64,000 bases of DNA from assembly GCA_002482645.1 (NCBI GenBank), contig DLGJ01000015.1:25015-89014 (forward strand), given 5' to 3'. Source of the DNA: Hyphomicrobiaceae bacterium UBA7697. Its GTDB lineage: Bacteria; Pseudomonadota; Alphaproteobacteria; Rhizobiales; Methyloligellaceae. This document shows positions 37,776 to 50,799 of the stretch, piece after piece. Made by a program: the position numbers and the translations under genes. A model generated the notes under the pieces. That model ran no database searches and was not told the origin of the DNA. It was given only the letters and a program-made list of their open reading frames with translations. Every line of letters starts with the position of its first letter. Position 1 is the stretch's first letter.

Positions 37776-37852
37776 GGCCCCGTAGCTCAGCAGGATAGAG
37801 CATCAGATTCCTAATCTGAGGGTCGCAGGTTCGAATCCTGCCGGGGTCACCA
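37776..37852 (+). tRNA. tRNA-Arg (CCT)
   Basis: 77-nt cloverleaf; anticodon stem TCAGA-TTCCTAA-TCTGA; T-loop GTTCGAATC; encoded CCA. Confidence 0.97.
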
Positions 37853-38407: not shown

Positions 38408-38995
38408 TCAAGATCCACCGCGTGCCGGAACGCTCGCTTGCAAGCGTGGGAGGAAGTCCCAAAGGTCCCGGTTGAGATCACGCAGACTGCGGATCGCCGC
38501 CGACATTTCATCGATGCGGGCCTTGTCGACCTTACGGGTCTCCCCGAACTTGAACCGGCCCCGCCGTTCCACGATGCGCAAGGACTGCGTGTGCGTGATG
38601 TCGCCCTGCTCGTTGAGCATGAACATCGCGTGATTGAACTCGTTGCGCAGCCGCGTGGCGGCCGAAAAACGGTCGATCAAATCGTCAAGCTCCTGGCGAA
38701 CTTCCGTCTGAGAAATTCGGATGAGCGCCAAGCGCTGTATCAGGTCGAGCCTCGCCCGCGTGGTGTTGAGCGTCGAAAACACGATGGCGGCCGACACCTC
38801 GTCCGTATCGAGCAGAAGCATCAGCACATAGATGAACATGCTTTCGTTGTTGGACCAGCTGAAGGAGAGGTTCCCGATCAGCGCAAGAAGCATCGTCCGG
38901 CGGTCGGCGGACTCGAACGCGGCCGTCTCGATTGATTTGAAGTCCGGTTTAGGCGGCAGCTTTGAATTCATGGGGAGGACTCGCTTTTGATCCAT
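38408..38995 (-). CDS. Alpha-helical hypothetical protein with Rx4H (HEPN-like) motif
   Basis: LIGNLSFSWSNNES..RLRNEFNHAMF; host-like codon usage; start at 38995 or 38971. Confidence 0.7.
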   Translation of the reverse strand: MDQKRVLPMNSKLPPKPDFKSIETAAFESADRRTMLLALIGNLSFSWSNNESMFIYVLMLLLDTDEVSAAIVFSTLNTTRARLDLIQRLALIRISQTEVRQELDDLIDRFSAATRLRNEFNHAMFMLNEQGDITHTQSLRIVERRGRFKFGETRKVDKARIDEMSAAIRSLRDLNRDLWDFLPRLQASVPARGGS

Positions 38996-39056
38996 GAACG
39001 CGCGAAAATGCCGGTCCAACGCCAGTATCGATCCCCTTCCGACAAGGGGTAGTGCC

Positions 39057-39554
39057 ATGTTTGGACTTTTGAAAGTCCGCCGCGCACGCAAGGTCGCCGT
39101 TGCCTTGATCTCTCCTTTCGTCGAGGAGAGTCAGACTCGATTCTCCTCGCAGCTGACAGAACACGCATGGCTTGACCCGTACATGGTCGGCTTCATGAGC
39201 ATGCTGATATCACTGGCCGCCGAATACACGGCGGGACGCCTCGATTCTGAAAGCGCGGGCCTCGTCCAGCTTGAAGCGTGGCAGGAGGTGACAGGTTTTC
39301 CGAGCCACCTGATCGGAGAAGAAATCTGCCTGCTCAGCAGCGGACAGGACCGGAAATTCCGTCATGGCTGTCTCAACGCCAGTCGCTTCATGGAAGAGCT
39401 AACACGTCCCGTGCATAGCCATCCCGATCAGCTTCCGCCCGGCTACCGGACCCACGGCCTCAACTACGACCGCTCCGCAGCGATGGCGCTTTGGTCGGAA
39501 CTTTTTGATGGCCACATCGGGGCGCTCGATGGCGATCTGGGTTTGCCGCGGTAG
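39057..39554 (+). CDS. Hypothetical protein
   Basis: ATG with AAGGGG RBS; protein-like composition (WLDPYMVGFMSMLISLAAE). Confidence 0.7.
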   Translation: MFGLLKVRRARKVAVALISPFVEESQTRFSSQLTEHAWLDPYMVGFMSMLISLAAEYTAGRLDSESAGLVQLEAWQEVTGFPSHLIGEEICLLSSGQDRKFRHGCLNASRFMEELTRPVHSHPDQLPPGYRTHGLNYDRSAAMALWSELFDGHIGALDGDLGLPR

Positions 39555-40088: not shown

Positions 40089-40514
40089 TTACCGGCCGCG
40101 ACGCTGTAGGCGGAGCTTTTGCTCCCAAACGCGCAATCGCAAAAGCATTGCGGTGCCGGTTTTGGCGGTTACGCCCAATATCTTTGCCGCTTTATAGGAG
40201 CTCAGGGACGGCCCCAGCGCACGGCTGAGCATGATGAGCTGCAGCCATTTGTGCATAGGGACCTTGCTGTCCTGAAAGATCGTTCCGAGCTTGACCGTGA
40301 AGGGGCGCCGGCAGTCATAGCACTTATACGTATGGATGCGGGTGCTCTCCCCGGTCAGACGCCCTATGCGGCGGCTGCCTCCGCAATGGGGACAGACCGG
40401 ACCGTCCGGCCAGATTTGTCGCTCGACAAATTCGTAGGCCGCCTCTTCGTCACGAAACGTGCCGAAGTCCAGTGTCTCTCGCCGCTTCATGAGTGTGCCA
40501 GACGCCAGCGACAT
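40089..40514 (-). CDS. IS1595-family transposase N-terminal Zn-ribbon/HTH only (no DDE domain)
   Basis: FRDEEAAYEFVERQIWPDGPVCPHCG..YKCYDCRRPFTVKLGTIFQDSKVPMHKW..SSYKAAKILGVTAKT. Confidence 0.8.
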   Translation of the reverse strand: MSLASGTLMKRRETLDFGTFRDEEAAYEFVERQIWPDGPVCPHCGGSRRIGRLTGESTRIHTYKCYDCRRPFTVKLGTIFQDSKVPMHKWLQLIMLSRALGPSLSSYKAAKILGVTAKTGTAMLLRLRVWEQKLRLQRRGR

Positions 40515-41113
40515 CGCTCGCGATCCTCTAGCCGAGCCACCCGATGGACACGCCCGTAAGCTGTTCCTTCCAACAGACGTTGCCGTGAGCTACGACGCCC
40601 CCGGAATTCTACAGCAGGCCCATTTTGGGCTCAACAGTAGAGTTGGGTACGCGTTGTATACATCGTGGTACGCTTAGTATTATTTTCACCCTTGGCGTTT
40701 GCGTTAGAGGTTTAGCGTAAACAACAAACCTGCTACGTCTTGAGTACGTATTATACAATATCCTATAACATATGCTGCATTACACCATAAGAACTGGGTA
40801 CATATTATGTGCCCTTTGGTATGTATAAGAATATTGCGAAAATTTCTGTGCCTCTTCCTAATATAGGGACCTTGATCGGACCACGTTCCGGTCAAGAAGC
40901 CAGTGGAAGGAGGCGGATACCCAGAGGACTCGTCCCGCTACCACAAGCGGCAGATTGACGGTGCGTCTTGGCGTAAGCGAGCCGTTCCGCGATCGGGGCC
41001 GCAGATGATGATGAACCGAAACTGGATGTCATCGCATATGCGTTCCTCGCCGACGCAGAAGATCAGCGAGATTCTCAGCCGCGATGCGTCCCTGTAAGGC
41101 CAAGGAGACCATC

Positions 41114-41989
41114 ATGGGCTTACGTGACTACGACCCCAGACATAAAAACGACCCTGATCAGGACCAGGATCAGAAGCAAGATCAGGATCAGAAGCAAGAT
41201 CAGGACCAGAAGCAAGATCAGCTTCAGGGCCAGGCACAAGGCCAAGCTCAGGGCCAGGCTCAGCTAGCGGTCCAGGCTCTCTACCAGGAAAGCGACAACA
41301 AGAACGACAACGATAACGACAACAAGAACGAGAATGAGAACAAGAACGAGGTAGAGAACAAGCTCGACAACGAGGTCGAGAACAAACTCGACAACGCGGT
41401 TGAGAACAAGGTCGATAACGAGGTCGACAACAAGGTCAGCAACGAAATCAAGAACGAAGTCGAGAACAAGGTCGACGTGGATGTCGACATTGACATCGAC
41501 CTCGATCTCGACAGCCTGCCGACCGACGACGACCTGATCGATATCGAGAACTTCAATGCGCAGGACAACGAAGGCATCGTCCAAGCTCTCGCCAACGACG
41601 TATGGCAAGATGTCGCCGGCCCGGGCAACGACAACGCCTTCAATATCCAGCAAGTCAACTCGCTCGTCGACAACGACACGCTGGATCGCGCTGAAGTCAA
41701 GTATGACGCCGACGAAGTCGACGGCAAGATGGACGACAAGTTCGACGATGGAAACATCGGCGCAGGTTCGTTCATTCAGCAAGCCTTTGCCGATGGCGGC
41801 GAAGCCAAGATGGACGACGCCATGGCCGAGACCGAGATCGGCAACATCAGCGGTACCGGCAACGCGACCGCCGATGCGATCGTTAATCAGGAAGCGTTCA
41901 CCCAGAACATCGTTCAGGGTGCCAACATCCAGTTCAACTCAAATGAGATCTCGGTTGTTGGTGACGACGCGACTGATGCGATCCTTTAA
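41114..41989 (+). CDS. Acidic Q/N/D-rich repetitive protein, candidate T1SS substrate (major subunit)
   Basis: AAGGAGA RBS; QDQDQK repeats, QGQA repeats, NKxxNExE octads, VDVDVDIDIDLDLD; no signal peptide; no RTX nonamers. Confidence 0.85.
   Translation: MGLRDYDPRHKNDPDQDQDQKQDQDQKQDQDQKQDQLQGQAQGQAQGQAQLAVQALYQESDNKNDNDNDNKNENENKNEVENKLDNEVENKLDNAVENKVDNEVDNKVSNEIKNEVENKVDVDVDIDIDLDLDSLPTDDDLIDIENFNAQDNEGIVQALANDVWQDVAGPGNDNAFNIQQVNSLVDNDTLDRAEVKYDADEVDGKMDDKFDDGNIGAGSFIQQAFADGGEAKMDDAMAETEIGNISGTGNATADAIVNQEAFTQNIVQGANIQFNSNEISVVGDDATDAIL
41153..41270. repeat. 18-bp and 12-bp tandem repeats encoding QDQDQK and QGQA
   Basis: gatcagaagcaagatcag units, then cagggccaggca-like units. Confidence 0.85.
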
Positions 41990-42000
41990 CCCAGCCAAAA

Positions 42001-42027
42001 AGCCCGCGCGGACCCTCCGCGCGGGCT
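42001..42027 (+). terminator. Strong hairpin after the repeat-protein gene (terminator or mRNA stabiliser)
   Basis: agcccgcgcgg-accct-ccgcgcgggct followed by gctctttct. Confidence 0.75.
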
Positions 42028-42117
42028 GCTCTTTCTCAAATAAGAACGAAATTAGCAGGGAGACTTGGATAGAGGCGCCAAGAGCTGGACCAAGAGAAGT
42101 TTGGCGTGGAGGCATCG

Positions 42118-44124
42118 ATGGGCACCGGAGTTGCCGAGATCATCCGTCTGTTCGCAGGGCACTTCCACCTCAGCAATGAGTCGGGGCGCATGCGCCAGAG
42201 CTACGATGAGTTCATGGCCCATCGGGAACGCGACGATTTCGACCCAGGCAAGCATTCCCCCGCTCACAAATCGCCAAATCTAGACGAATTCGATACCGCG
42301 TCCCGATTCGTCGACCCGCAGTCCCCGGCACCCGGCCTGATCGGCTATGGTCCGGCGTCGGCAACCCCATTCCATTCAGGGCCGCGCCCTCCGGACATCA
42401 ATCCGATTGTCGACGAAAAGCTTCCGGACGACCTTCCACCACCGGGCGCTCCCTTCCTGCTCGTTGCTCCCAGCCTGCTGCAGATCGTAACCGTCATTTC
42501 AAACGTACCGGACGAAGCCGCGATCCATGTCACATACGATACAGGCGGCGATCAGCACCTGATCCAAGTCCAACAGCTTAATGTCATGTGGGACAATGAC
42601 ATTGCGATCTCCGAAGCGTGGTCGGTGGAGGCTCTCCAAGCACTGCAGTTTCGAGATATCGCGGAGACGCTTCAGGAACTCCATGACGAGGCGACGGCCG
42701 CGGTCCCTCCCGAGTTTTCCGATCTCGCCTTCAACACGGCGTCGCTCATATCGTTTGCCCGCGAATACGACGCCGCATGGGAAGCCTCGGGCGAAACCAC
42801 CAGAAGCGACGTCGAGCCTGGCGTCTACCTAAATGGCGAGCTTCAACCCGAAGGCACCGAGTTGCCCGTATTTCCGGTCGCGATCGGCTCCGAGGAGGAG
42901 TCTGAAAATCCATACCCGACGGACGTTCCCGCGCAGATCGTAACGGCAGGCTCCAACCTCGCCGCAAATGTCGCGGGCATCTTCGATATCAATCATGCGA
43001 TCGGCACCCTCGTCGTCGTCGGCGATTACTTTCGGACCGACGCTATCGTCCAGCTCAATCTCTATGTCGACGACGACGACATCACATACGCTGGCGATGG
43101 CATTTTCCAGATCGAGGGTGGCGGCAACGAGGCCTTCAACATCGCGACCTTTCTCGACACGGACGCAGGAGTTCCAAGCTTTGCGGGAAGTAATATTTTT
43201 CCCGGAATCGACTGGCACGTCGATGTGCTTGACGGCGACTTGTATGACGTCAGCGTTGTAACGCAGAAGAACTGGCTATACGACAACGACATTTCCGTTC
43301 AGGACGCCTACTTGGCCAACTATCAGCTCTTGATGGGGGCCAACGAGCAAGGCAACTTCGCCGAAATAATAACGATAGACGGAGACTACGATCTGGTCAT
43401 CGTCCTCGGCGACTACCACGAGATCAACTTTATCTATCAGAAGAACGTCCTGCTCGATCCCGACACACTCAAGGTGCTCGGCTACGACGCCTCCTTCCCG
43501 GAAGGCGACGGTCTGTCGGATCCATCCATAACGGCCGGCGCGAACTGGCTTCAGAACGAAGCGTTGATCGAGCAATGGGGAACGCAGGCCTATCAAGCGC
43601 TCACACCGGAATGGGAGGCCTTGATTGCGCAGCTTAAAAGTGGCGATACCGAACTGGATCCTTCGGCAGGAATCGGCATTCCGAACTTCAACGACCCCGA
43701 GTTCAACATCCTGTTGATTACGGGCAATGTCTACGACGTCAACGCCATCGAGCAGGAAAACGTCGTTGCCGATGCCGATGTCGCGCTTCAAGTGTTGCCC
43801 GCCGCGGCCGCGGCCGCCGATCCGGTCATGCAGGTGGCATCCACCGGCGAGAACGCACTCGGGAACTTCGCCACCATCGTCCACACCGGCCCTGCAGCGG
43901 ACTACTACATCGGCGGCGACCTCTATGAGGACGAGCTGCTCATCCAAACCGAATTGGTCGCGACCGATGACGACACGGTAAAGGAGTCGGATCCGGACGT
44001 CTTGGCGAACGAGCTCGTTGCCTTTGCCTCGCTCCCCGAGGGAGACGGTCAGGATGAGGACGCCGTTGCGGTCCCCGTTCACGACTCCGGCCATGCTGAC
44101 GTACTCGGCAATGTCCTCACCTAG
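42118..44124 (+). CDS. Acidic repeat protein, candidate T1SS substrate (minor subunit)
   Basis: GGAGG RBS; five alternating QxNxxxDxD and GxNxxxNxA motifs; no signal peptide or RTX nonamers; directly upstream of the T1SS genes. Confidence 0.85.
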   Translation: MGTGVAEIIRLFAGHFHLSNESGRMRQSYDEFMAHRERDDFDPGKHSPAHKSPNLDEFDTASRFVDPQSPAPGLIGYGPASATPFHSGPRPPDINPIVDEKLPDDLPPPGAPFLLVAPSLLQIVTVISNVPDEAAIHVTYDTGGDQHLIQVQQLNVMWDNDIAISEAWSVEALQALQFRDIAETLQELHDEATAAVPPEFSDLAFNTASLISFAREYDAAWEASGETTRSDVEPGVYLNGELQPEGTELPVFPVAIGSEEESENPYPTDVPAQIVTAGSNLAANVAGIFDINHAIGTLVVVGDYFRTDAIVQLNLYVDDDDITYAGDGIFQIEGGGNEAFNIATFLDTDAGVPSFAGSNIFPGIDWHVDVLDGDLYDVSVVTQKNWLYDNDISVQDAYLANYQLLMGANEQGNFAEIITIDGDYDLVIVLGDYHEINFIYQKNVLLDPDTLKVLGYDASFPEGDGLSDPSITAGANWLQNEALIEQWGTQAYQALTPEWEALIAQLKSGDTELDPSAGIGIPNFNDPEFNILLITGNVYDVNAIEQENVVADADVALQVLPAAAAAADPVMQVASTGENALGNFATIVHTGPAADYYIGGDLYEDELLIQTELVATDDDTVKESDPDVLANELVAFASLPEGDGQDEDAVAVPVHDSGHADVLGNVLT

Positions 44125-44150: not shown

Positions 44151-46169
44151 ATGGCCGACAATAACCGAAATCCGCTTCACAACGGCAGGACGAACGGAGC
44201 CGGCGCCGACAGCCCCAACGGTTCCGGTTCCGTGTCCACCGAAGCCGGAGAGGAAGCCGCAAGCAGATCGAACCACGGCAGCGGCACGGCGCTCGGCAAT
44301 ATCTTTGACGGCATCAAGAACGGCGCGCGCGCCAATGGTGCCAACGGTCATGGTGCCAACGGTCACGGCGCAAATGGAAGCGCTCCGATCGGCGGACGCG
44401 TCTCCAGTTTGGATTTCCGGGGAGTCCTCACCAAGGGCCTCGCCAGTTGCCGGCGCAACCTCGCGACCGTCGCCGTGTTCTCCTTCGTCGTGAACCTGCT
44501 TGTGCTGTCCATTCCGATTTATCTCTTCAACATCTCCGACCGCGTACTCACGAGCCAAAGCATGGACACGCTCGTCATGCTGACGATCGTCGTCGTCGGG
44601 GCGATCGGCGCGCATGTCCTGCTGGACCTGGCGCGGAGGACCATCCTCATGCGCGTCGCGGTCGATCTGGAGAGCAATCTCGGCGCGCCGGTCTTGAGCG
44701 CGGCGGCCCGATCGTCGCAAAACGGTTCCAGCCGCGAGTTTCAAATTCTGTCGGAACTCCAACACTTGCGTAGCTTCATAACCGGACCGGTGCTCCTCAC
44801 CATGCTCGACATGCCGGTGGTGCCGATCTATCTCGTCGTGGTCTTTCTCGTTCATCCCCACCTCGGTTTCATCGTGCTGGCGACCGGCACCGTGCTGCTG
44901 ATACTTGCGCTCCTGAACCAGAAGCTCACGGCCGTACATTTCGGTCGCGCGAACGCCTTCGGCACACGGGCCAACCTGCAAGCGGACGCCATGGCGCGGA
45001 ACGCGCAGGTGATGAACGCCATGGGCATGGTGCCGGAAGGCGTCTTGATATGGGGCGGCGAGACGGCGGAGTCCTTGAAGTCTCAGGTGTCCGCGCAGGA
45101 TCGCAACATCTGGCTGACAGCCCTGTCCAAGTTCGTCCGGCTCTGTACGCAGATCGCGATCCTCGGCTGGGGCGCTTACCTCGCGACGCACGGGCATTTG
45201 ACCGGCGGCATGATCATCGCGGCGTCGATCGTCGGCAGCCGCGCGCTCTCGCCGATCGAAGGCACGATCGAAGGCTGGCGCAGTTTCGTTCAGGCACGGT
45301 CCGCCTTCGCCCGGGTGAAAAAACTGCTGCAATCCTCGCCGTTGAACTTCGATAGGCTGCGCCTGCCGCGCCCCAAGGGCCATCTCATGGTGGATCGCAT
45401 CCTCTACGTGCCGCAGCCCGCGAAGAAGGTCATCCTGAACGGTGTTTCGTTCGAACTGCAACCCGGCGAGTCTCTTGGAATTGTCGGCGCGTCCGGAACC
45501 GGAAAGTCGACCTTGGGAAAGATGCTCGTCGGCTCGATCTTTCCCACGGCGGGTAACGTCCGCCTCGACATGATGGATCTACGCAACTGGGATCCGCGGC
45601 AACTCGGCGAGAACGTCGGGTATCTGCCGCAAGACGTCCAACTTTTCCCCGCGTCCATAAAAGAAAACATCGCCCGCATGCGTAGAGACGCGAGCGATGA
45701 ATCCATCTTCGATGCCGCGGAGATGGCGGACGTTCACAGCATGGTATCGGAGTTCGCTCAAGGGTACGAAACGCAAGTTTCCATGGATGGAACGCCGCTT
45801 TCGGGCGGCCAGAAACAGCGTATCGGTCTTGCCCGCGCCTTCTTCGGAGATCCGCAACTCGTCGTACTGGACGAGCCGAACTCCAATCTCGATCCGCCGG
45901 GAGAACGTGCGCTGGCGCGCGCTCTGGGGCTGGCGAAGGAGAAGCAGATCACGGTGATCGCGATCACCCAGCGGCCGTCGCTGCTGAGAAGCGTCGACAA
46001 GATCCTGATCCTCAACAAAGGAACGGTTCAGGCGCTCGGCGATCGCGCCGATATCATTCCGCTGCTCACGGCGCGCAAGGAGCTCGCAACGCAAAAGGCC
46101 GCCGCCAATGGCGGCGAGGCGGACTATCAGGCCGAGGAACTAGACGACCTGGACCGCCAAGGCGATTAG
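44151..46169 (+). CDS. Type I secretion system permease/ATPase (PrtD/AprD-like)
   Basis: DRVLTSQS, TM region, GASGTGKST, LSGGQKQRIGLARA, LDEPNSNLD. Confidence 0.95.
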   Translation: MADNNRNPLHNGRTNGAGADSPNGSGSVSTEAGEEAASRSNHGSGTALGNIFDGIKNGARANGANGHGANGHGANGSAPIGGRVSSLDFRGVLTKGLASCRRNLATVAVFSFVVNLLVLSIPIYLFNISDRVLTSQSMDTLVMLTIVVVGAIGAHVLLDLARRTILMRVAVDLESNLGAPVLSAAARSSQNGSSREFQILSELQHLRSFITGPVLLTMLDMPVVPIYLVVVFLVHPHLGFIVLATGTVLLILALLNQKLTAVHFGRANAFGTRANLQADAMARNAQVMNAMGMVPEGVLIWGGETAESLKSQVSAQDRNIWLTALSKFVRLCTQIAILGWGAYLATHGHLTGGMIIAASIVGSRALSPIEGTIEGWRSFVQARSAFARVKKLLQSSPLNFDRLRLPRPKGHLMVDRILYVPQPAKKVILNGVSFELQPGESLGIVGASGTGKSTLGKMLVGSIFPTAGNVRLDMMDLRNWDPRQLGENVGYLPQDVQLFPASIKENIARMRRDASDESIFDAAEMADVHSMVSEFAQGYETQVSMDGTPLSGGQKQRIGLARAFFGDPQLVVLDEPNSNLDPPGERALARALGLAKEKQITVIAITQRPSLLRSVDKILILNKGTVQALGDRADIIPLLTARKELATQKAAANGGEADYQAEELDDLDRQGD

Positions 46170-46179
46170 GAGTGCTGAG

Positions 46180-47520
46180 ATGAGTCAGGGACCGGCTCCC
46201 CAAGAATGGCATGCGGGCATTCCCCGTTCGACGCGCACCGCGACGATATTTGGCTTTTTGGTCATGGCCGCATTCTTGCTCGGCTTTGGGTCGTGGGCAT
46301 CCACGGCCCCCATCGCCGGCGCGATCATTGCCGGCGGTTCCTTCGTCGCAACCGGTGAAAACAAGATCATTCAGCATCTGGAAGGCGGCGTAATCAAAGA
46401 GATCCGCGTTCGCGAAGGCGACGTCGTCGAGAAGGGCGATGTTCTCATTGACCTGGACGAAAGGGAGCCGCGGACGGAGTTGCGCCGCTTGGAATTGCGC
46501 AAGGCCCGCGCCGTGGCCCAGGAAGCACGCCTGACCGCGGAAATGAACGAACAGGATGATGTGACGTTCCCGCGAGAACTCGCCGGTCGCGAATTCGATC
46601 CGGACATCTCGGAAATACTGGAACGCGAACGCCAAGCCCTGACGGCAAGACGCAATGCCGTCAAAACCGAAATCGCAACGCTCATGGAAGGCGTCGACGC
46701 CTTGGATCAACGGGTCGAAGGCGGAAAGCTCCAACTCGCCGCGGTCCAGCAGCAGTTGGCCTATGTTGAGGAAGAACTCGATGGAAAGCGGACCTTGCTC
46801 AAGAAGGGGCTCATCCGCAAACCGGAAGTTCTGTCGTTGGAGCGCGCCAAAGCGAACCTCTCGGGTGAGATCGGCAGGCTCAATGGAGAGATTGGCGACG
46901 CACGCGAAAGAATCGCACGCATCATGGAGCAGGTGACCGGCGTCCGAAACAATACCGTCAAGGCCGCGGTGGAGGAGATGCACAAAGTCTCCGCCGAACT
47001 CAAGGACGTACGCGAACTCATAAACGCGGCGAAGGCCGTCGTCGAGCGGGTCAGCATCACCGCGCCGGTCAAGGGTATCGTCGTGAAGCTCCAATACCAC
47101 ACGCCCGGCGGCGTCATCGAGCCGGGCAAGCCGATCATGGAAATACTTCCCGTTCAAGCGGAGCTGCTGATCGAGGCGCAAGTCAGACCCCGGGACATCG
47201 ACGTCGTCAAACGCGGCCAGCACGCCATGGTTCGGCTCTCCGCTCTCAATCGTCGTATCACGCCAATGATCCCCGGCGAGGTCGTGTACGTCTCCGCGGA
47301 TTCCTTGGTGTCGGGGAAGCAGGAAGCACAGCAAAGTCCCAGCGACGTCTATATCGCACGCATCAGGTTGAATCTGATCGAGGCATCGAAACTGCCGGAC
47401 TTCGCGCCCACACCCGGAATGCCAGTCGAGGTCTATATCAAGACCGCAGACCGGACCTTCCTCGAATATCTCTTCAAGCCTATCGAGGATAGCATGTCTC
47501 GAGCGTTCCGTGAGTTGTGA
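46180..47520 (+). CDS. HlyD family type I secretion membrane fusion protein (PrtE-like)
   Basis: N-terminal TM; KIIQHLEGGVIKEIRVREGDVV; ITAPVKGIV; TPGMPVEVYIKT. Confidence 0.95.
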   Translation: MSQGPAPQEWHAGIPRSTRTATIFGFLVMAAFLLGFGSWASTAPIAGAIIAGGSFVATGENKIIQHLEGGVIKEIRVREGDVVEKGDVLIDLDEREPRTELRRLELRKARAVAQEARLTAEMNEQDDVTFPRELAGREFDPDISEILERERQALTARRNAVKTEIATLMEGVDALDQRVEGGKLQLAAVQQQLAYVEEELDGKRTLLKKGLIRKPEVLSLERAKANLSGEIGRLNGEIGDARERIARIMEQVTGVRNNTVKAAVEEMHKVSAELKDVRELINAAKAVVERVSITAPVKGIVVKLQYHTPGGVIEPGKPIMEILPVQAELLIEAQVRPRDIDVVKRGQHAMVRLSALNRRITPMIPGEVVYVSADSLVSGKQEAQQSPSDVYIARIRLNLIEASKLPDFAPTPGMPVEVYIKTADRTFLEYLFKPIEDSMSRAFREL

Positions 47521-47555: not shown

Positions 47556-49064
47556 TCAATGGACGAGCGTGATCGGCCCGTTCTGTAAGCGCGTCGCGGT
47601 GTGGTACGCCGAGGTGGCCTCTCCGGTTTTACCCAGAGCCAGCAGAACCTGCGCGAGCCGCGAGTACACCTCCGCGTCCGACGGTTTTCGCTGGAGAGCT
47701 TGACGGTACGTCTTTGCCGCGTCCTCGAAGCGCGTCTGCGCCTCGTAGGCAAGTCCAAGCCGAAGCCAGGCGTTGTGCGCGTCCGGCTTGATGGACACAA
47801 GTTTCCGGAACATTTGGGTTGCACCGCGATAGTCGCCCTTGCGCATCAAGAGCTGCCCGCAACCATACAGCGCCGCCGGAGATCGAGGCGTCACCTTGAG
47901 CACCTGACGATAGCCGCGCTCGGCGCCGGCGAGCTTGTTCGCCTTATGGAGCTGTATCGTTTTCTGAAGGACGCGTGAAATGCAGCGAGGATCGAGCTTG
48001 CCGCCGAGATTCTGATTCCCTGGCGCCGTGATGACGAGATTGCTGAGCAACGCTTCGTCGACGCCGAACATGTATTTGTACTCTTCGTTCCCGCGCAGAA
48101 AATCGTACGTAACGATGCCGTTCCCGATGGCATGCCGCAGACTGTAGGCATGGAGCGCGACACCCGGCGGCACCGGGCTACGTACCGTTTCGTCGCGGCC
48201 GGCCATGAAGAACAGAAACGCTTTCTTCTGACGGTCGACCAGGGTGGCGAGCGCACCGAGCGGCTTGTCTCCTTGCCACATGACGGGGAGAAAAAGGGCG
48301 CCGCCGTCGAAGCATGCCCTGAACATGCCTCGGTTCGTGCGCACCAATCTGTGCAGCCGGTCCCCTTTGCGCTGCGCCCATTTGGTGCGCCAGAAATTCA
48401 TAAGGATGTCGAGGTCGCGATCGATCGTGTCCTCGTTGGCGACCGTAATGCGGTACTCCTGTCCATCGTCGATCTTCCGCAGAAAGCGGCGCATCTTTTG
48501 TCGTGTGTTCGAGCCAAGCCCTGCAAGATACGCGTCCCAATTTTGCGGCAGGCCGACATACGGACAAACGAGATTGTTGACGTTGTCCAGCTTGTTGACG
48601 GCGGGAATCTCAATCCGGCGAAAGTCGCTCGAGGGCAAACTTCGCAAGAGGCGTTCCAGCCTGCCGGGAGACGACCGGAAGAACTCCAGCATCAACACGG
48701 ACCAGTTGGCCCGGCGAAGAAAGCGGCCGAAGGCGGATACCGTTTGTCCTTCGTATTCGGGACGCGTGATGAGGCCGGAATAGTCGGACAATCCCCGGCC
48801 GGCGAGCGAAATCTCGTTGTAGAAACCTCCCTCCCGCCTGCGCATTTTTGTGCGCAGTCTCAGAGGAAAGAACGCCACATAGCCGGAAGACCGGCCGGGC
48901 GCGGCGGCGAGAATGAACCATTGAGACCTGTCGCCATCGAGCCAGCGTGAGATCCAGGTCCACGACAAGAAGAACTGCGCCTCGGGATCGCTCGCATACA
49001 CGGCGTCCCAATTTTCCCTGATATCAAGCAACTCTTGGCGCGTCTCGATGATGTCAATGCGCAT
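47556..49064 (-). CDS. GNAT family (CelD/BcsL-like, Acetyltransf_6) protein with C-terminal TPRs
   Basis: FFLSWTW, DYSGLI, CPYVGLPQNWDAYL, YDFLRGNEEYK, then TPR-like helices. Confidence 0.85.
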   Translation of the reverse strand: MRIDIIETRQELLDIRENWDAVYASDPEAQFFLSWTWISRWLDGDRSQWFILAAAPGRSSGYVAFFPLRLRTKMRRREGGFYNEISLAGRGLSDYSGLITRPEYEGQTVSAFGRFLRRANWSVLMLEFFRSSPGRLERLLRSLPSSDFRRIEIPAVNKLDNVNNLVCPYVGLPQNWDAYLAGLGSNTRQKMRRFLRKIDDGQEYRITVANEDTIDRDLDILMNFWRTKWAQRKGDRLHRLVRTNRGMFRACFDGGALFLPVMWQGDKPLGALATLVDRQKKAFLFFMAGRDETVRSPVPPGVALHAYSLRHAIGNGIVTYDFLRGNEEYKYMFGVDEALLSNLVITAPGNQNLGGKLDPRCISRVLQKTIQLHKANKLAGAERGYRQVLKVTPRSPAALYGCGQLLMRKGDYRGATQMFRKLVSIKPDAHNAWLRLGLAYEAQTRFEDAAKTYRQALQRKPSDAEVYSRLAQVLLALGKTGEATSAYHTATRLQNGPITLVH

Positions 49065-50770: not shown

Positions 50771-50799
50771 TCGCAGGCTCGAATTCTGCCGGGATCGCC
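50771..50799 (+). repeat. Degenerate copy of the tRNA-Arg 3' end (candidate attR)
   Basis: tcgcaggctcgaattctgccgggatcgcc versus tRNA 37823-37851 tcgcaggttcgaatcctgccggggtcacc, 25/29. Confidence 0.8.

Follow-up and report, generated by a model that had tools for sequence, protein, structure and literature searches.

An alternating dipeptide tract in a putative non-RTX type I secretion substrate encoded by an alphaproteobacterial gene cassette

Substrates of type I secretion are understood mainly through the RTX proteins, and it is for these proteins that folding on extracellular Ca2+, frequent among type I substrates, has been established. In the current study, we describe a gene cassette located in a DNA stretch of 64,000 nucleotides (the window) from Hyphomicrobiaceae bacterium UBA7697 (Methyloligellaceae; contig DLGJ01000015.1, positions 25,015 to 89,014). 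The first gene of the cassette, gene A (41114..41989, + strand), encodes an acidic, Cys-free protein of 291 amino acids (aa) that has no Sec signal and is a putative type I secretion substrate. Beyond it lie gene B, genes for a PrtD-type ATP-binding cassette (ABC) exporter and a HlyD-family adaptor, and a gene for a protein that joins a GNAT domain to tetratricopeptide repeats (GNAT-TPR). Our analysis best supports a reading in which A represents a family of type I substrates that are not RTX proteins, carry a novel dipeptide tract and are probably served by a modifying enzyme of their own. A first-pass annotation of gene A had not used the context provided by the secretion operon and the GNAT-TPR gene, which is the most informative part of the locus.

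The RTX proteins (HlyA, CyaA, AprA/PrtA, RsaA) resemble protein A in the PrtD-type exporter and HlyD adaptor that adjoin them, in being acidic and Cys-free without a Sec signal, in their acidic/hydrophobic C-terminus, and in a repeat region expected to be unfolded inside the cell and ordered outside it. Protein A differs from them in having no GGxGxDxUx nonapeptides, since its unit is a dipeptide held in one phase over ~120 residues, and in that acidity is not conserved within its family. No match to PF00353 was found for A, B or any of 82 homologues even at E<=1, and no GGxGxD motif is visible in A. The HlyC/HlyA pair offers a parallel to GNAT-TPR and A, being a cytoplasmic acyltransferase-like partner linked to internal lysines; however, the partner enzyme of A, a GNAT fused to TPR, matches PF13480 and not the HlyC family (PF02794).

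Other described systems share single features with the locus. In the Ser-Asp stalks of staphylococcal Clf/Sdr proteins, as in A, a long dipeptide repeat adjoins a functional domain and could plausibly act as a shaft or spacer; one residue of the stalk dyad is modified by dedicated enzymes (SdgA/SdgB), as proposed for A. These are, however, Gram-positive, Sec-exported and LPXTG-anchored proteins with Ser glycosylation and a uniform repeat of strain-variable number, without a Q-N-V gradient or hydrophobic end, whereas A has Q/N/V-x dyads, ends in -DAIL with no LPXTG and belongs to an alphaproteobacterial host. Gln or Asn at every second position, possible side-chain hydrogen-bond ladders and a probably extracellular product connect A with curli CsgA, the yeast prion domains and the polar zippers of Perutz. 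Unlike curli, A shows no curlin repeat (no Pfam match to PF07012), no strand-turn-strand Gly/turn signatures, no csgEFG-like genes and no Sec signal, and its neighbours are type I secretion genes; a curli-like identity was thus ruled out. Its high charge and strict alternation also set it apart from prion domains. O-GlcNAc transferase (OGT), like GNAT-TPR, combines an enzyme domain with a TPR superhelix, and superhelices of this kind are known to bind peptides in an extended, unfolded state, but the catalytic domain of GNAT-TPR is a GNAT (PF13480). Lastly, the octapeptide repeat in the triple-stranded beta-helix of T4 gp5 keeps an inside/outside dyad phase along a long rod, with aliphatic residues inward. 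Its even, 8-residue repeat holds the dyad phase as in A, although the likeness is one of analogy only and A has neither the Gly kink position nor any sequence similarity.

Protein A and the conservation of its dipeptide tract

The open reading frame of gene A comprises 291 codons and is present as a single copy in the genome. Its start at 41114 was preferred to 41084 because an AAGGAG site lies upstream and homologues share the common start M-[GS]-x-x-x-Y-D-P. The translation contains every block that had been listed from the sequence alone, namely QDQDQKQDQDQK, QGQAQGQAQ, NKNDNDNDNKNENENKNE, the NKLDNEVE/NKVDNEVD octads and VDVDVDIDIDLDLD, and the protein is as acidic and Cys-free as described (72 D+E against 20 K+R, net charge -52, 0 Cys). 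The N-terminus (MGLRDYDPRHKNDPDQ) is hydrophilic, with no Sec/Tat signal. Tandem Repeats Finder recovered the annotated 18-bp (3.2 copies, 97% matches), 12-bp and 24-bp (5.5 copies) units between 41156 and 41475. Two antisense reading frames of 172 and 164 aa (41264-41782 and 41281-41775, - strand) overlie this repeat region and are by-products of the repeat DNA, not genes.

The tract itself spans residues 16-132 (41159..41509, + strand) and can be divided into a Q-x block (41159-41263), a non-repetitive linker, LAVQALYQESD (41264-41296), an N-x block (41297-41347), N-x-V-x octads (41351-41467) and a V/I/L-D block (41471-41509). Read at even positions, the residues are Q eighteen times, then A, Q, L, Q and S, N nine times, V or L alternating with N, and finally V, V, V, I, I, L and L. 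A single phase is kept across all 117 residues with zero slips, linker included, and the alternation score of 54 compares with 14.9 +/- 3.3 (maximum 29) in 10,000 shuffles of the same residues. The alternating pattern noted in the first-pass annotation is therefore stronger than was claimed. Its statement that the intervening residues are charged holds for ~47 of the 59 partner positions and fails in the QG/QA block and the linker.

Protein A, although real and conserved, has so far escaped annotation. Searches of Pfam, NCBIfam, PADLOC and PDB sequences returned no match for it, the hits to family libraries being low-complexity noise (Utp14, EBNA2, PARP; all E > 0.01), and a literature search that included the peptide motifs themselves as queries found no description of A or its cassette. 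A word-indexed search retrieved 23 relatives, all labelled 'hypothetical' and including Methyloceanibacter and Blastochloris. A pattern scan of one genome per species retrieved 98, of which 80 loci were analysed; these relatives come from Bradyrhizobium, Afipia, Nitrobacter, Tardiphaga, Bosea, Methylobacterium/Methylorubrum, Microvirga, Reyranella, Stappia, Roseibium, Hyphomicrobium, Blastochloris and Pseudorhodoplanes, among others. Against 1.84 billion representative proteins, a profile of A matched 301 clusters at E<=1e-3 and 163 at E<=1e-10.

The repeat region is retained in these orthologues. About 75 distinct homologues share one architecture, in which a short basic/His-rich start is followed by Q-x, an in-phase linker, N-x, N-x-V-x octads, V-x and the C-terminal domain, so that the order Q, N, N/V, V is kept throughout. 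In the same set, 85-98% of Gln and Asn in the N-terminal half fall in one phase and the in-phase run covers 85-180 residues (typically 110-150), the tract having a median length of 118 residues (range 88-158). The core face consists of Q/N/V/I/L/T/S/A at a median of 100%, whereas the partner face is variable, with an acidic share of 0.03-0.61 and a G/A/L share of 0.04-0.64; where the window protein has NKNDNDNDN, for example, Nitrobacter, Bosea, Methylobacterium and Reyranella have NGNLNGNGN. It is therefore the Q/N/V face that selection keeps, and, judged across the family, the acidic face is a lineage-specific feature and no family trait. It follows that the Ca2+-binding or mineral-binding role once suggested for the acidic face is unlikely as a conserved function.

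Comparison of three Methyloceanibacter species revealed tract indels of 2, 4 or 8 residues only, all even, with pS values of 0.52-0.58 and a dN/dS-like ratio of 0.13-0.26. High synonymous divergence combined with a low non-synonymous to synonymous ratio indicates that the pattern is maintained as protein and not through recent homogenisation of the DNA, and by these measures the alternation is non-random and under purifying selection. No change in copy number was seen in gene A from four metagenomes of four different studies, which carried 0 indels and 1-5 single-nucleotide polymorphisms, so the suggestion that repeat number varies between strains was not borne out.

A strict two-residue period with one conserved face fits a beta-type structure, and a beta-ribbon is plausible for the tract. 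The alternation behind the earlier proposal of a beta-ribbon or solenoid proved real, but that fold gains no support from the predicted models, which contain no strands. AlphaFold2 gave a mean pLDDT of 37.7 with 16 sequences (alignment A1) and of 50.1 with 82 sequences (alignment A2; pTM 0.23), with no confident fold in either run, and the best region was residues 120-200 (pLDDT ~55-71). Low confidence of this kind would be expected equally of a disordered protein and of one whose order is confined to assemblies.

The C-terminal module, protein B and the secretion genes

The C-terminal module of A (41513..41986, + strand; residues 134-291) contains motif columns that are invariant in alignments A1 and A2, represented in the window by IQQVNSLVDND (41645-41677, + strand) and AFTQNIVQGANIQFNSNEI (41894-41950, + strand). 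In the family as a whole, the invariant motifs of the last ~150 residues read N[IL][DQ]Q[VI]N..[VL]D.D and AF[TN]Q.I..G.N.Q.N. Several proteins of 657-1605 aa that the search of representative proteins also returned lack the dipeptide tract and carry 4-12 copies of the module in tandem. The gene for one such protein (1578 aa) belongs to a cassette of the same type and is followed by a B-like gene, an ABC gene (73% identity), an adaptor gene and a gene resembling u185, a small conserved cassette gene described below; a u185 homologue likewise precedes another multi-module gene. Among the analysed loci, A-type proteins with 4-11 tandem C-terminal modules and no dipeptide tract were observed in L092 (1863-6599) and L091 (3435-5408), while the A-type protein of Hyphomicrobium (L072) carries two modules with DLDVDIK-type dyads and those of Microvirga (L071, L076) carry TKT/DND repeats. 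Judging from these arrangements, the module is a real, repeatable and uncharacterised domain, and the N-terminal extension of A-type proteins is interchangeable, appearing as a dyad tract, as T-dyads or as a string of modules. Such interchangeability points to a shaft-like or length-giving role for the extension.

Gene B (42118..44124, + strand) encodes 668 aa as in public collections, with a possible GTG start at 42106 (672 aa). Its product contains 116 D+E against 19 K+R, no Cys, no Sec signal and no family match, and its N-terminal region is rich in Pro. The motifs hxQxNxhxDxD and GxNxxxNxaxI occur five times each in B, in strict alternation (shuffles ~0.01), and once each in A. The C-terminus of B is strongly conserved (D-x-[MIL]-[GA]-[SN]-V-[LM]-[HT]). 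That B is built of compact A-like modules can be taken as a lead only. BLASTP (E=0.018) and hhalign (probability 11%) found just the two short motifs in common, and for this reason domain homology between A and B is not claimed.

The exporter and adaptor genes follow directly. The PrtD-type type I secretion ABC permease/ATPase (44151..46169, + strand) matches TIGR01842 with 685.8 bits (cutoff 510), and the HlyD-family type I secretion periplasmic adaptor (46180..47520, + strand) matches TIGR01843 with 384.7 bits (cutoff 209) and Pfam HlyD_3. Searches of all loci with the window proteins by tblastn showed that the order A, B, ABC, adaptor is kept in ~75 of the 80 loci, A being the first cassette gene, with carriers in Bradyrhizobium, Afipia, Nitrobacter, Bosea, Methylobacterium, Reyranella, Blastochloris and Stappia, among other genera. 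In all, at least 80 alphaproteobacterial genomes conserve the cassette. It has been reported that the last 20-60 residues of type I substrates are rich in D, L, T, V, I and F and poor in R, K, E and P (PMC8861453). The last 20 residues of A (41927-41986, + strand; IQFNSNEISVVGDDATDAIL) have a similar composition, with 11 residues from D/L/T/V/I/F, 0 R, K or P and the end -DAIL; C-termini of the A family are acidic but variable, mostly ending in a hydrophobic residue or Gly. This composition is consistent with export and is not proof of it. Considering also that exporter and adaptor genes lie downstream and that both A and B are acidic, lack Cys and have no Sec signal, A is very probably a type I substrate. 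Two other identities were considered for the locus and ruled out: a precursor of a ribosomally synthesized and post-translationally modified peptide (the ABC exporter has no peptidase domain and A has 291 aa) and an anti-phage defence system (no PADLOC match).

Tract lysines, the gene A leader and the surroundings of the cassette

The GNAT-TPR gene (47556..49064, - strand) encodes a cytoplasmic protein of 502 aa, with no signal peptide, that is a candidate modifier of A lysines. Residues 185-330 match Acetyltransf_6 (PF13480) above the gathering score (74.7 bits, cutoff 22, E=1.1e-20), and TPR families are matched as well. Sequence searches of the PDB found no solved relative of the GNAT half, while the matches of the TPR half include OGT. 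The gene occurs in ~55 of the 80 loci. Where it is present in the locus, the tract contains 6-13 Lys; where it is missing, the tract contains 0-5, mostly 0, and a Nitrobacter locus that retains a TPR remnant alone has 0 tract Lys. Whole-genome searches showed that genomes lacking the gene at the locus lack it altogether and that carriers have one copy, inside the cassette. On a maximum-likelihood tree of the ABC and adaptor proteins from 57 loci, both traits changed at least 7 times and the 7 independent pairs were all concordant (7/7; sign test p=0.016), with contrasts falling inside Reyranella, Nitrobacter and Bradyrhizobium. The tract contains essentially no Arg, and its lysines stand most often in the contexts NKV, NKN and QKQ. 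Lys content is nearly the same in the B proteins of loci with and without the GNAT-TPR gene. This co-variation is the most informative new result of the study. Read most simply, it would mean that the enzyme modifies the tract lysines of A in the cytoplasm, ahead of export. Whether GNAT-TPR acts on the lysines of A is, on this comparative evidence, evenly balanced in our judgement.

Gene A is preceded by a conserved 5' leader (41041..41113, + strand) that is common to ~70 of 73 homologous loci in many genera. It comprises a hairpin with arms CTCGC (41046-41050) and GCGAG (41066-41070), whose loop carries a nearly invariant GACGYAGAAGAU, and a stretch complementary to the Shine-Dalgarno (SD) site (41083-41092; consensus CGAUGCUCC) that can pair with the SD site and the bases up to the ATG (41101-41110). 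The structure was defined by hand and tested by pair counts. In 71 sequences, pairing was found in 83% of cells against 26-44% when the partners were slid, two-sided changes occurred in 10 of 15 pairs, and the observed values were reached by 0-5 of 500 shuffles. RNAalifold predicted no structure from the gappy leader alignment and Rfam contained no match. The leader looks like a translational riboregulator and is a candidate new cis-regulatory RNA.

Between A and B, a 12-bp GC-rich hairpin followed by a T-rich run (42001..42027, + strand) is a likely partial terminator. Four metatranscriptomes, drawn from one ice study and two soil studies, contain contigs with 85-96% identity to gene A at summed depths of 5-50, whereas B and the transporter genes reach 0-6, and one 750-nt RNA contig runs from A through into B. 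These data suggest that the product made in abundance is A and that B depends on read-through. The run X34, although labelled a transcriptome, held a 108-kb contig, which made it genomic, and it was disregarded. No RNA-seq of this organism was found.

Several further genes belong to the cassette or flank it. The most conserved cassette-specific gene, u185 (38408..38968, - strand), encodes a protein of ~186 aa that is found at 48-65% identity in nearly all loci, the Rhizobium and multi-module variants included, and a second conserved protein, u186 (38994..39554, + strand), is found at 30-49% identity in many loci; neither has a family or PDB match, and both are candidates for a regulator, chaperone or immunity factor. 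A stand-alone Zn_ribbon_IS1595 protein (40089..40514, - strand; Pfam E=1.6e-12) is encoded divergently from A and occupies the same place in a subset of loci. The region between them (40515-40900) holds several copies of a GGGTAC/GGTACG motif that are conserved in three Methyloceanibacter species (alignment A3) and may be operator sites. Pfam, NCBIfam, PADLOC and PDB sequence searches gave nothing usable for A, B, u185, u186 or the multi-module relatives.

A distant cassette in Rhizobium ruizarguesonis contains a B homologue (29% identity), the ABC and adaptor genes, a u185-like gene and GNAT-TPR, and its A-type protein combines TDTDTK/TITDTDTK dyads with recognisable C-terminal motifs. This cassette (L005, 1164-6568) adjoins a cellulose-synthase-like glycosyltransferase gene, two epimerase genes, a GH26-like gene and DUF995, and two GH39 genes come after the cassette in Blastochloris tepida (L002). 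These neighbours hint at a link to exopolysaccharide.

The cassette is patchily distributed, occurring in 2 of 401 genomes sampled across the class, in 21 of 401 sampled across the order (16 of 150 genera) and in 3 of ~25 species of the window's own genus. A tRNA-Arg(CCT) gene (37776..37852, + strand) lies upstream, and its 3' end recurs 13 kb downstream at 50771-50799 (25 of 29 bases), the sole such match in the window. The two copies bracket the whole cassette, whose GC content is 58.7% as against 64.9% upstream, and no integrase was seen with it. The tRNA bracket, the lower GC content and the patchy distribution fit acquisition as an island.

Proposed mechanism and competing explanations

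We propose that A, a small protein, is encoded by the first and highly transcribed gene of a dedicated cassette for type I secretion, which comprises A, B, the PrtD-type ABC exporter and the HlyD adaptor. The conserved leader, which could sequester the SD site, would gate translation of A. Lacking a signal peptide, the protein would be synthesised in the cytoplasm and kept unfolded there by its polar and charged tract, and GNAT-TPR would modify the lysines of its other face before export, in a manner analogous to the action of HlyC on RTX toxins. Export would proceed C-terminus first. The 150-residue C-terminal module, a member of an uncharacterised repeatable family, would probably dock A to B or to other A molecules, given that B is apparently formed by five compact related units. 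The 117-residue tract would serve as an extended shaft whose conserved Q/N/V/I/L face probably pairs with like faces as beta structure outside the cell, with the V/I/L-Asp end beside the module nucleating the pairing. In this scheme the anatomy, conservation, synteny, co-variation of Lys with GNAT-TPR and transcription in relatives are shown, whereas export, beta pairing, lysine modification and the function of the leader are steps that we infer. The chain taken as a whole (a module-plus-shaft protein exported by type I secretion, pairing through Q/N/V residues outside the cell and modified on Lys before export) is put forward tentatively, as a proposal that falls just short of an even balance. 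For the tract to form beta assemblies outside the cell is in itself possible, yet we stop short of calling it probable. More doubtful is the fullest version of the proposal, an extracellular polar-zipper shaft of ~120 residues (~40 nm if fully extended) with Gln/Asn/Val ladders formed only after export and lysines that a GNAT tethered to TPR repeats modifies in the cytoplasm; such a shaft would mark a class of non-RTX type I substrates that depend on modification and possess a riboregulatory leader of their own.

Some observations weigh against this proposal. The AlphaFold2 monomer of A showed neither fold nor strand even with 82 sequences, and the similarity between the A module and B is restricted to two short motifs, at the low hhalign probability given above. 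In the analysis of lysines, the threshold of >=6 Lys was picked post hoc, lineages without GNAT-TPR lose acidic partner residues along with Lys, so that GNAT-TPR may follow a 'charged morph' as a whole and not Lys itself, and the divergent A-type proteins of Microvirga and Hyphomicrobium have Lys and no GNAT gene. Moreover, the depth of contigs gauges expression poorly, and the RNA in question belongs to relatives and not to this organism.

The tract could instead be a permanently disordered, hydrated polar and acidic spacer or brush that holds the module off the cell, like the Ser-Asp repeats of Clf/Sdr or the EP repeats of procyclin. Its alternation would then be mainly a by-product of slippage in steps of 6n bp, and GNAT-TPR would protect or tune it. 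This explanation draws on the low AlphaFold2 confidence with zero secondary structure, on a composition dominated by the disorder-promoting N, Q, D, E, K and G, on the high charge in this lineage, on the 12-, 18- and 24-bp tandem units of the DNA and on the replaceability of the tract, which related cassettes swap for extra modules or other repeats, suggesting that length or hydrophilicity is what matters. We nevertheless consider it unlikely. A spacer of this type would be expected to tolerate odd indels and substitutions on both faces, yet indels are even-only and the phase and one face are kept across the blocks, the linker and ~75 homologues, with residues retained despite high synonymous divergence. 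In addition, the tract closes at its C-terminal end with a model example of an amphipathic strand (VDVDVDIDIDLDLD), and the repeats that replace the tract in divergent relatives are built of the beta-formers T, V and I.

The remaining explanations have much less in their favour. A beta structure whose acidic face serves to bind Ca2+ or to nucleate a mineral (carbonate or another) would suit the net charge of the window protein, the i, i+2 spacing of Asp in the V-D block and octads, and the known tendency of type I substrates to fold on extracellular Ca2+, but it is improbable when the acidic partner share varies so widely between relatives, with G/L/A partners in Nitrobacter, Bosea, Methylobacterium and Reyranella, and when no RTX or EF-hand motif, nor any nearby biomineralisation gene, was found. 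No more probable is that A, alone or with B, is a secreted antagonistic protein (a bacteriocin or pore-former) that acylation activates as it does RTX toxins, the V-D strands forming a membrane-inserting beta hairpin and the small conserved genes providing immunity. The cassette does resemble hlyCABD in its logic, combining substrates with an acyltransferase-like gene, an ABC exporter and an adaptor, its distribution is patchy and linked to a tRNA-bounded island, and small conserved genes adjoin it. However, the V-D block has just 14 residues, with Asp at alternate positions unfavourable to a membrane, no similarity to toxin or defence families was detected, the acyltransferase-like gene is missing from many lineages, and A transcripts well above those of the export genes are better suited to a structural product. 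As for the possibility that gene A is a non-functional low-complexity reading frame generated by tandem repeats, repeat DNA does create long reading frames on both strands. Conservation of the gene refutes this possibility: orthologues occur in at least 98 genomes, their order is conserved, the C-terminal domain is conserved and non-repetitive, selection is purifying, and the gene has a ribosome-binding site, a conserved leader and coverage by RNA contigs of relatives.

The tracking of tract lysines by GNAT-TPR, the repeatable C-terminal module and the conserved SD-sequestering leader are new to this study, and six cassette-specific proteins (A, B, u185, u186, the Zn-ribbon protein and GNAT-TPR in this role) were uncharacterised in a cassette that carried no annotation. 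If the proposed mechanism is true, type I secretion would have a second design for export-competent proteins that become ordered only outside the cell, in which a dipeptide tract replaces the Ca2+-binding nonapeptides, and modification of type I substrates before export would reach beyond HlyC. On the same condition, the tract of A is a natural, evolutionarily tuned example of an alternating polar/charged, beta-prone sequence and may be of interest for the design of protein materials. The cassette may also account for surface or matrix properties of alphaproteobacteria living in soil and wastewater.

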